The translations under genes and the position numbers were made by a program. Positions 41,677 through 44,809 of a stretch of DNA of 64,000 bases are shown piece by piece; the first letter of the stretch is position 1; every line of letters begins with the position of its first letter. The notes under the pieces were generated by a model, which ran no database searches, was not told the origin of the DNA, and worked only from the letters and a program-made list of their open reading frames with translations. Source of the stretch: Eledone cirrhosa (lineage: Eukaryota); the NCBI GenBank assembly GCA_964016885.1, contig OZ024764.1, positions 21,824,001 through 21,888,000 on the forward strand. The letters run 5' to 3'.

Positions 41677-43226
41677 AATACCAGAGGACATTGGCATTAA
41701 AGAGCACGTTACATCAGACATATCCTCAACATTAACCATTTCTAATGAAAGACACTACCCATCATTTTCAAATAATTTTGAAAACACTCAACACTTTGAA
41801 GGGATTTAGTAATATAACTAAATTTCTCAGTATTAAGCTGCTATTTGGAACATAACTTTGCACAATTTCATGAAGTTACAATGGAAAGTTTTTAGATAAA
41901 TATAAAGACTGGTATGAAAAAGATAAAACACTTTTATATCAGTTGTTTCATCAACACCATTATTTAAAGACTAAAGGAAGCTGTTATACAGAACAGATAC
42001 AACCTTGTTTATATAAATCTATGGGAGAAATACTGGGAAATATTTCTTGTAAACTCAATAACACTTCTATTCTTTGCTGTCTGGAATATGTAGAAGATAC
42101 AAAATAAAGCTGAAGAAATTTACACATGATTTTGTAAGATCTTCATATATTGACAAAGATGATAGTTGATGGAACTACAGGAGTAGAAATATTTCCATTA
42201 TTACAGGAATAACTAATCAAATGAAGACCAGAAAAATTAGATTCTTCACTCTCAGGAATATGTACAAAATAGTTTTATATGTATACTAGCAGTAAAGCCC
42301 GGCGTTGCTCGGGGTCGCTCAGTAGCTGTGTTAAAGTTACAATGTTAAGTTTCTTTCTTGGCTTAAAAACTGTAGTGTCTACTGTGCAGACTTGCATGTG
42401 GTGTTTTTGATTAATATTCCCTCAACCAACAATATGCCTTATGAAGTTAAGAAAACAACGATAACCCGAATGTTATAACAAAAGAGGATGCTGGGGATAG
42501 AAACTGCACTGGTTATTTATTAACAAAGATCGAAAATGTAAACACTGCAACGCAGAGAAAAACATTAGCGTAACCAAATTATCAGTTATGTCTGTCTGCA
42601 CGCCTATATCACCTCTCTGCACGACTGTCTGTCTGCACGCCTATATCACCTCTCTGCACGACTGTCTGTCTGCACGCCTATATCACCTCTCTGCACGACT
42701 ATCTGTCTGCACGCGTATATCACCTCTCTGCACGACTGTCTGTCTGCACGACTGTCTGTCTGCACGCCTAACGACGAAATATTTGCTTGTTTTACGTAGT
42801 CTTTAAATAGACTTGTTTTCAAGTAAAAATATTGTTTTAAAATGCTTTTAAATGGAAATGAAGCAAAACGGAAGCTTAGTGTTCGAACTGATGAATTTTG
42901 CAGGTCAATATTTTGCTGGCTCGTAATTTTTTACGTAAGACGCTCAATGTAAACAGAACAAAGGGAAATAACTGATAACTTACGCTCAAAAATCGATACA
43001 TTATATTCGATTTCGTCACATAGGGTGGGTCAATTTGAAATTTTGTTTTTCCGATGTCTTCGCTAGGGCTGAATGTACAAGTATAGCAATTTCGGTACAA
43101 TTCCGTCAGAGATTCTAAGAGGAGATGTGTGCCAAAAATCGATAGACAGACAGACAACCACAGTTTTATATATATAGATTAAACTTGAAGAGATCTACAA
43201 AACAGTTTGTATCATCTTTAAATATA
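41677..43226 (+). other. Unit-3 acceptor and 5'UTR exon, interrupted by a Helitron and ending at the inversion breakpoint
   Basis: Colinear with 2141-2796. Confidence 0.8.
42286..43178 (-). mobile_element. Non-autonomous Helitron, family 2, with internal 37-bp repeats
   Basis: Minus strand A|TCTATATATATAAAA...CCCGAGCAACGCCGGG-CTTTACTG-CTAG|T; empty site GTATA^TTAAAC at ~2748 and ~63688; no TSD. Confidence 0.9.
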
Positions 43227-43230
43227 TTTA

Positions 43231-44255
43231 ACGTTTGTGGGTAGTTAAGGTATTACCCTGACTGAATGATTTACTACAGATGTCAATGATGTAGCTTCTC
43301 TCCTGAATGAATTTGTTTGTGAACTCTGATGCTAATACTGTGACTGAATGATTTACCACAGATATCACAGTGATATGGCTTCTCTCCTGTATGAATACGT
43401 TTGTGAGTAGTTAGGTTACTATTTTTAGTGAATGTTTTACCACAGATATCACAGTGATATGGGTTCTCTCCTGTATGAATACGTCTGTGAGTAGTTAAGT
43501 GATTAACTACGAGAGAATGATTTACCACAGATATCACACTGATATGGCTTCTCTCCTGTATGAATACGTTGGTGTTTAACGAAGCTACTTCTGTCAGAGA
43601 ATGTTTTACCACAGATATCACAGTGATATGGTTTCTCTCCTGTATGAATACGTTTGTGGGTAGTTAAGGTATTTCTGTGACTGAATTTCCTGTGATGTGA
43701 TTTTCCTCAGATGTCACAGTGATGTGGCTTCTCTCCTGTATGAATTTGTTTGTGAACTCTGAAGCTACTACTGTCACTGAATGATTTATCACAGATATCA
43801 CATTGATATGGCTTCTCTCCTGTATGAATACGTTTGTGAGTAGTTAGGTGATGACTACAAGTGAATGATTTACCACGGATATCACAATGATATGCGTTTT
43901 CTCCTGTATGAATAGGTTTGTGAGTAGTTAGGTTATTATTTTTAGAGAACGTTTTACCACAGATATAACAGTAATATGGCTTCTCTCCTGTATGAATACG
44001 ATGGTGTTTAGTTAAGATATTATTGTGACTGAATGATTTACGACAGATGTCACAGTGATATGGCTTCTCTCCTGTATGAATACGTTTGTGAACTCTGACG
44101 CTACTACTGTGACTGAATGATTTGTTACAGATATCACAATTATAAGGCTTCTCTCCTGTATGAATACGTTTGTGAGTAGTTAGCTGATTACTACGAGAGA
44201 ATGATTTACCACAGATATCACAGTGGAATGGTGATTTTACTATATTTTTCGACAT
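43231..44255 (-). pseudogene. Inverted C2H2 ZNF-C, ~12 fingers; 182-aa ORF followed by a stop, frameshifts and 3' truncation
   Basis: [12 protein letters not shown] start at 44255; TGT to TGA at 43707-43709; later fingers in shifted frames. Confidence 0.9.
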
Positions 44256-44809
44256 ATCTCATAAAAGATATCAATCACCTCAGTTTCTCACATAATTCAC
44301 AGTTTTAATATTTTTCTCCTCGCAATATATAGATGTATACTTTCTGAGACAGTCTTACCTCGAGTGATAGCAAGGCTAAGATGTTGGAACTACCAAACAC
44401 CCTCATATGTATCACCTGACACCTCGGTAAGGAGAGCTGCCAACGATAACAAGAACATCGTTGTCAGGGACCTATCTCCTCCAAACTTCTCCAACACCAC
44501 AGACTAGAATATTCTACTCTTTATTCCCTGTCAAATATATTTCAGTCTAGTCATTTGTCTTGTATCTTGTATATGTATTTTCAAAACTAACTGTCACATT
44601 TGTGAGACCCCAGTTAGTGATGTTTTTGTCTCTCTCCCACATCCTACAAGCTGTAGTAAAAGTGAGGGTCACTGCTTCTGTAGACGAACGAAATAAAAGT
44701 TAAACGACCAGTAATTATCGGCAAAGTATTTATTCCAGTCTGTGATGTTTGAGAAGCTGGGCTGCTGATAACGAAGTTGTGGTCACTGTTGGCGGCTGGC
44801 TTTACCGAA

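Follow-up and report, generated by a model that had tools for sequence, protein, structure and literature searches.

One unit of a tandem C2H2 zinc finger (ZNF) gene array in Eledone cirrhosa, here called unit C, is the product of a deletion, an inversion, and a second deletion affecting its own coding part. We regard it, with a probability of about 75%, as a drifting pseudogene: one broken ZNF gene that was flipped and shortened and then copied to six places. Its coding frame is disabled and its intron and flanks are retained, as in a duplicated (non-processed) pseudogene. The unit was found in a window of 64,000 nucleotides (contig OZ024764.1:21824001-21888000) that contains several units of the array, within a genome of 3.0 Gb. 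A regulatory reading of unit C is possible in view of its sequence, although unsupported.

Organization of the Array

The family's exon-2 acceptor motif was found, with up to one mismatch, in 227 places, all of them on OZ024764.1 among the matches listed. The array, a single young ZNF family, numbers at least 227 units and extends over about 5 Mb, from ~19.1 to at least 23.8 Mb; its 5'UTRs are ~97% alike. Its units are grouped in blocks of alternating orientation: minus at 19.13-19.6 Mb, plus at 19.67-20.94, minus at 20.98-21.30, plus at 21.32-21.89, minus at 21.90-22.05, and plus from 22.06 Mb.

We examined 189 acceptor-bearing units, 8 of which were too short, and classified the remaining 181; some 46 or more units lay outside this set. 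The class "intact" tolerates loss of the last finger, and 11 units with a normal, shorter C-terminus were not counted as broken. On this basis 137 units are intact and 44 are not (31 broken, 6 inverted, 5 without a ZNF array, and 2 without a start). Within the window, ZNF-A is intact, ZNF-B and ZNF-D are frameshifted, and unit D has no acceptor. Between units B and C, at 27043-33500, lies a unit remnant in which the terminal exon is present and the ZNF array absent. Elsewhere in the array, two pairs of units (L036/L037 and L059/L060) are identical over 2.5 kb at distances of 15 kb and 8 kb; these are either very recent duplications or assembly duplicates.

Structure of the Inverted Unit

The earlier note on this DNA had described an acceptor at 41676, a 5'UTR running to 43226, ZNF coding sequence in reverse, and forward sequence resuming near 44337, all of which were confirmed by alignments to unit A and to the family pre-promoter (Table 1). 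Positions 41631-42288 are 97% identical to the 5'UTR of unit A (2095-2752), and the match picks up again at 43164-43226, past an 893-bp insertion that we take to be a non-autonomous Helitron/DINE-like element. In reverse orientation, 43231-44334 is 84-87% identical to ZNF-A and ZNF-B, and a Pfam zf-H2C2_2 match (E=7e-48) covers 43707-44258 on the minus strand. The two joints carry insertions of 4 and 2 nt; these, the deletions on either side, the 893-bp element, the loss of the presumed exon-1 donor, and the six genomic copies had escaped the earlier note.

Table 1. Features of the inverted unit and its surroundings (window positions unless given in Mb of OZ024764.1)
Feature	Position	Strand	Remarks
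ZNF-B 3'UTR intron	donor GT 19115, own acceptor ending 19854	+	second acceptor copy ends 27483
Predicted promoter of unit C	33391..33505	+	exon-1 donor deleted
Broken RTE-like non-LTR retroelement in unit C intron	37753..41190 (3' end approximate)	+	common to all six inverted copies
Family exon-2 splice acceptor AG, predicted	41675..41676	+	motif search
5'UTR of unit C, first part	41677..42288	+	
893-bp mobile-element insertion within exon	42289..43181		in K1 and its twin K2 only
5'UTR remnant up to left breakpoint	43182..43226	+	~78 nt of normal UTR deleted behind
Left joint, 4 inserted bases	43227..43230		identical joint in 6 copies
Inverted segment, 1104 bases	43231..44334	-	last ~80 nt of 5'UTR, ATG 44255-44253, ~12 C2H2 fingers
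Right joint, 2 inserted bases	44335..44336		identical joint in 6 copies
Family pre-promoter of next unit	44337..45472	+	94% to pre-promoter at 11283
Predicted promoter and exon 1 of unit D	45550..45680	+	donor GT at 45679; conserved across copies
ZNF-D, frameshifted	47690..48452	+	has lost its acceptor and 5'UTR; candidate hairpin partner
Inverted copy K1	window		
Inverted copy K2	21.65 Mb		
Inverted copy K3	20.996 Mb		
Inverted copy K4	19.369 Mb		
Inverted copy K5	19.206 Mb		
Inverted copy K6	19.418 Mb		

The inverted segment has a stop after finger 6, a 12-nt insertion, two frameshifts, and a truncated last finger. The 3' frameshift is shared with a sense paralog (L042) and therefore likely predates the inversion or was exchanged. 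Missing at the right joint are the unit's 3'UTR, its terminal exon, and intergenic DNA, ~7.4 kb in terms of unit A (3854 to 11283). An AATAAA at 44692 could provide a 3' end for an antisense RNA; each of the six copies has an AATAAA 369 nt past its right joint. No coding product was found on the plus strand, whose longest ORFs (43 and 72 aa) both lie in or at the 893-bp element.

A single repair event would have flipped the coding part, deleted the 3' end, and killed the unit. The short insertions at the joints and the lack of long homology there suggest end-joining as the probable route.

Copy Number and Origin

A search of the genome with the joint patterns found both joints in exactly six places, the same six for each joint, on both strands of OZ024764.1 between 19.2 and 21.9 Mb and thus spread over 2.7 Mb. 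Divergence among the copies is 0.2-1.9% in the intron and 0-2.9% in the right flank; they are also unlike in finger number and insertions, and no N occurs in any of the stretches examined. The six inverted copies form one clade (support 100/96) in a tree built from the 5'UTRs of 88 units with long UTRs among the first 158; this indicates a single event spread by segmental duplication. Unequal crossing-over may have duplicated intact and broken units alike, and the copies would then have decayed neutrally.

Six is an ordinary copy number for this array: the other supported clades of the tree have 4-8 rows each. Other lesions are common to 2-3 units, or to 5 when two stop contexts that are nearly identical are counted together. 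A survey for recurrent inverted cassettes, which the earlier note had suggested, gave a negative result in this sample: no further inversion was detected in the 181 classified units of at least 227, and all six known ones stem from the same event.

The presumed exon has received separate insertions in K1/K2 and in K6. Two unlike mobile elements have entered the same AT-rich stretch of the 5'UTR (window 42270-42290), the 893-bp element of K1/K2 and one of ~360 bp in K6 (L023-L024), presumably tRNA-SINE-like. At K3 (20.99-21.01 Mb, L014-L016), sense ZNF arrays lie on both sides of the inverted exon, within 3-8 kb.

Promoters, Splice Sites, and Transcription

Exon 1 of the family is a prediction based on a conserved block that resembles a promoter and has a GTAAGT donor at its end; the reads contained no junction of exons 1 and 2. 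Depth in run X4 steps from 4.65 to 86.4 at the predicted promoter and exon 1 of unit D, which weakly supports this exon. By these predictions the inverted copies differ in what remains upstream of them. K4-K6 have a full promoter, donor, and acceptor, with promoter and donor 5.5-5.9 kb upstream; K1 and K2 have lost the exon-1 donor, ~8.2 kb upstream of the acceptor; and K3 has no promoter of its own. Because its predicted donor is gone, the window copy ranks among the poorest candidates for expression as a gene, and any antisense RNA from it would probably be incidental, arising through read-through or unspliced transcripts.

The family has a spliced 3'UTR intron ~200 nt behind the stop codon (window 4107-5333, 19115-19854, and 48666-49866), a layout that can trigger nonsense-mediated decay. 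The terminal acceptor and the exon that follows resemble the exon-2 acceptor and 5'UTR (67-79%), which suggests an old internal duplication. The earlier note had proposed that the 3'UTR donor of ZNF-B is spliced to the acceptor at 41676. The donor exists, but such a splice must skip the nearer acceptors ending at 19854 and 27483, and the joining seen in X4 speaks against it: a contig carries the equivalent joint 48665 to 49867, from a family donor to the bases after the terminal acceptor (49866). The normal partner of the family's 3'UTR donor is thus its own nearby acceptor. Since that contig is spliced, run X4 is RNA-like, and the family is expressed in it.

Among contigs of X1, X4, X5, and X6 over 41640-48700, and of X1, X4, X5, and X7 over 43172-43288, none bridges the left joint; X5 and X7 have zero contigs on 43172-43288. 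The DNA-like run X1 fails here too, and at 43501-43504 it likewise has none of the alleles specific to this copy. Contigs lose rare branches and carry no strand, and X1 could stem from another individual, so the missing left-joint contigs say nothing either way. No bridging piece for the right joint is present among the contigs listed over 41640-48700. A marker allele at 41921, found in all six copies and in 10 of the 99 units scored, accounts for 133 of 2094 in depth in X1 and 0 of 119 in X4, a faint hint of low expression to which we give no weight. A signal of A-to-G editing in X4 was considered and rejected: the counts (A>G 9 and T>C 16, vs C>T 19 and G>A 14) are like those of X1 and reflect paralog differences.

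Pairing with the Family

As the earlier note had held, any plus-strand RNA crossing the inverted segment would be antisense to all members of the family: exact 21-mers of the segment occur in 103/103 intact paralogs of a first sample, covering a median of 69% of their length. The best identity of the segment to 147 paralogs has a median of 83.5%. The same 21-mer coverage for 60 ordinary sense paralogs has a median of 72%, and the family match of the inverted segment falls at their 28th-35th percentile. Tuned complementarity is ruled out against these 60 controls: ordinary paralogs match as well, and it is the finger repeat that produces the match as a side effect.

The ~1-kb duplex of the earlier note stands for units B and C, which would pair at 87.1% over 1089 columns with a longest perfect run of 116 nt, but not for C and D, where pairing would reach only 76.0% over 808 columns (longest run 39 nt) instead of a near-perfect 1 kb. 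For K4-K6 and the next ZNF, predicted pairing is 82.5-84.7% over 1160 columns, with 12-13 perfect runs of at least 21 nt. Such hairpin stems need read-through or splicing to the neighboring unit. The next sense ZNF downstream is ~3 kb away in K1-K3 and ~14 kb away in K4-K6, and the stem partner is not conserved. Convergent block boundaries also yield inverted pairs, for example unit E and a neighbor 14 kb off (85% over 868 columns). A self-hairpin of the segment was discarded as a candidate, its folding energy (-272 kcal/mol) lying within the range of 8 approximate shuffles (-258 to -283 kcal/mol).

Divergence of the Copies

Within two trios of copies, variable positions number 22 in 2255 for the inverted DNA (0.98%) and 72 in 5622 for the intron retroelement (1.28%); the inverted DNA is slightly the less variable of the two (p=0.30). 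Read in the ZNF frame, which is unreliable for the few sites past the last frameshift, 4 of 21 changes are synonymous, where 19.6% would be expected. In twelve close pairs of intact genes 11/32 are synonymous, with no significant difference (p=0.35). The changes strike zinc-binding residues and the frame, and look neutral. These data are consistent with drift, with little power at 21-22 sites. Neutral-looking divergence also says little in itself because the sequence of an antisense RNA need be conserved only loosely, and a young regulator need not show constraint.

Other Explanations

The main alternative, a functional regulator resembling the antiNOS RNA of Lymnaea, would apply to K4-K6 rather than to the window copy, and we think it unlikely. 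Exon 1 would be spliced to an exon 2 bearing 1.17 kb of antisense ZNF sequence. The transcript could stop at the AATAAA as a trans-acting antisense RNA, or could continue to the next exon-1 donor (an exon of ~3.0-3.5 kb) and be spliced to a sense ZNF, forming a hairpin that is 82-85% paired; the hairpin would feed ADAR or Dicer and damp the family. The predicted signals intact in K4-K6, the loss of the unit's own 3' end, which favors read-through, and the capacity for 1.16-kb duplexes and for 21-mer matches throughout the intact paralogs all suit such a regulator. At K3, moreover, a 3'UTR donor upstream has lost its own acceptor and has that of the inverted exon next in line; the upstream unit there has no promoter and carries a retroelement inside its fingers. 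The expression of the family in RNA-like X4 and a molluscan precedent (PMC3537157) point the same way. Against it, constraint was not seen in the copies, their origin is single and their number ordinary, half of them have lost upstream parts (the donor in K1 and K2, the promoter in K3), the downstream partner is not conserved, and any paralog turned around would match equally. What the earlier note had put forward as an antisense or hairpin regulator thus keeps its pairing capacity and gains neither a sign of selection nor a tuned match. Slightly less probable again is the wider proposal that an antisense gene at K4-K6 reaches >200 ZNF genes through the 84-bp finger repeat and tunes their dosage or directs A-to-I recoding in trans.

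It is very improbable that divergent transcription from the promoter of the next unit reads the inverted coding part in its sense direction, which would yield a shortened ZNF protein (182 aa in the window copy, ~10 fingers in K4-K6) and a cis duplex with plus-strand RNA. The ATG and ~80 nt of UTR are retained and the promoter core stands head to head with them, 1081-1258 nt from the right joint, in 6/6 copies, but the changes look neutral and no terminal exon follows. An assembly artefact, which the earlier note had named as a way in which its reading could fail, is scarcely credible, even in a highly repetitive array whose joints are known here from the assembly alone, because six diverged copies, on both strands, 2.7 Mb apart at the extremes, with most flanks 0.2-2.9% different, unlike finger numbers and insertions, and no N, carry identical joints.

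The antisense reading is better judged on K4-K6 than on the window copy. The locus bears on how dosage is controlled in very large, young C2H2-ZNF arrays, and on what supplies the double-stranded RNA that is edited in coding regions. Should the intact copies be expressed, they offer a natural marked test, in which joint-spanning reads and copy-specific variants separate antisense RNA from >200 look-alikes. If they are silent, a dead, rearranged unit has been multiplied to six copies, a clear case of birth-and-death turnover.

Comparison with Known Systems

In Lymnaea, a NOS duplicate that carries an internal inversion gives rise to antiNOS, an antisense RNA acting in trans, for which transcription and regulation are reported (PMC3537157, which cites Korneev and O'Shea 2002). 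Like antiNOS-1 and antiNOS-2 of L. stagnalis, the inverted unit is a duplicated molluscan gene with an internal inversion and with complementarity to the mRNA of other loci, and its transcript could pair with paralog mRNA. The target here, however, would be >200 paralogs through the finger repeat and not one gene, the cassette exists in six copies, and, its anatomy being known from DNA, the likeness would extend to action only if it is transcribed.

The Nmy and Tmy hairpin-RNA loci of Drosophila, which arose recurrently, are reported to yield siRNA against the Dox family (10.1101/2021.08.05.454923). They too consist of inverted sequence of genic origin, directed at a gene family that is young and expanding, whereas the stem of unit C is not self-contained and has no conserved partner, and its six copies have one origin and not a recurrent one. 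At the rice LGC1 locus, transcription reportedly runs past a deleted 3' end into an oppositely oriented paralog of a multigene family, and a glutelin read-through hairpin results in a silencing phenotype. Our unit has only the geometry in common with LGC1, with stems that would be 76-87% paired. Pseudogene-derived endo-siRNAs of mouse oocytes, which Tam and colleagues are said to have described in 2008, reportedly include Dicer products of antisense or inverted pseudogene RNA paired with parent mRNA; by analogy, an antisense RNA from unit C might pair with its parent mRNA in the same manner. The main text of an octopus small-RNA paper (PMC9699675) makes no mention of siRNA, piRNA, or Dicer.

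Coleoids are reported to have tandem arrays of multi-megabase length, an expansion of C2H2 genes, and widespread editing directed by repeats (PMC9068888). In its broken units, finger gain and loss, and block inversions, the present array is like other C2H2-ZNF arrays that evolve by birth and death; unlike in the usual array pseudogenes, the lesion of unit C is an internal inversion and its remnant is antisense to the family. That repeated finger sequence allows one RNA to act on many ZNF mRNAs is reported for miR-181a, which targets ZNF coding regions (PMC2978345), although this is a mammalian microRNA seed mechanism and not a long antisense RNA. In the literature searched, which left out most subscription papers, antisense copies derived from an inversion were not reported for any cephalopod ZNF array.

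Additional Features of the Window

A tandem repeat of ~39 bp, with long spurious ORFs, lies at 1267-1996 and 62441-62959, 5' of acceptors A and E. Broken DNA-transposase-like remnants, which we take to be hAT-like, have been duplicated along with the units (8233-10648, 23391-25890, and 54122-56434). At ZNF-D (47673-47690), the adjoining LINE-like DNA contains a T-rich AG that ends at 47681, with the ATG 8 nt further on, and that might serve in place of the lost acceptor.
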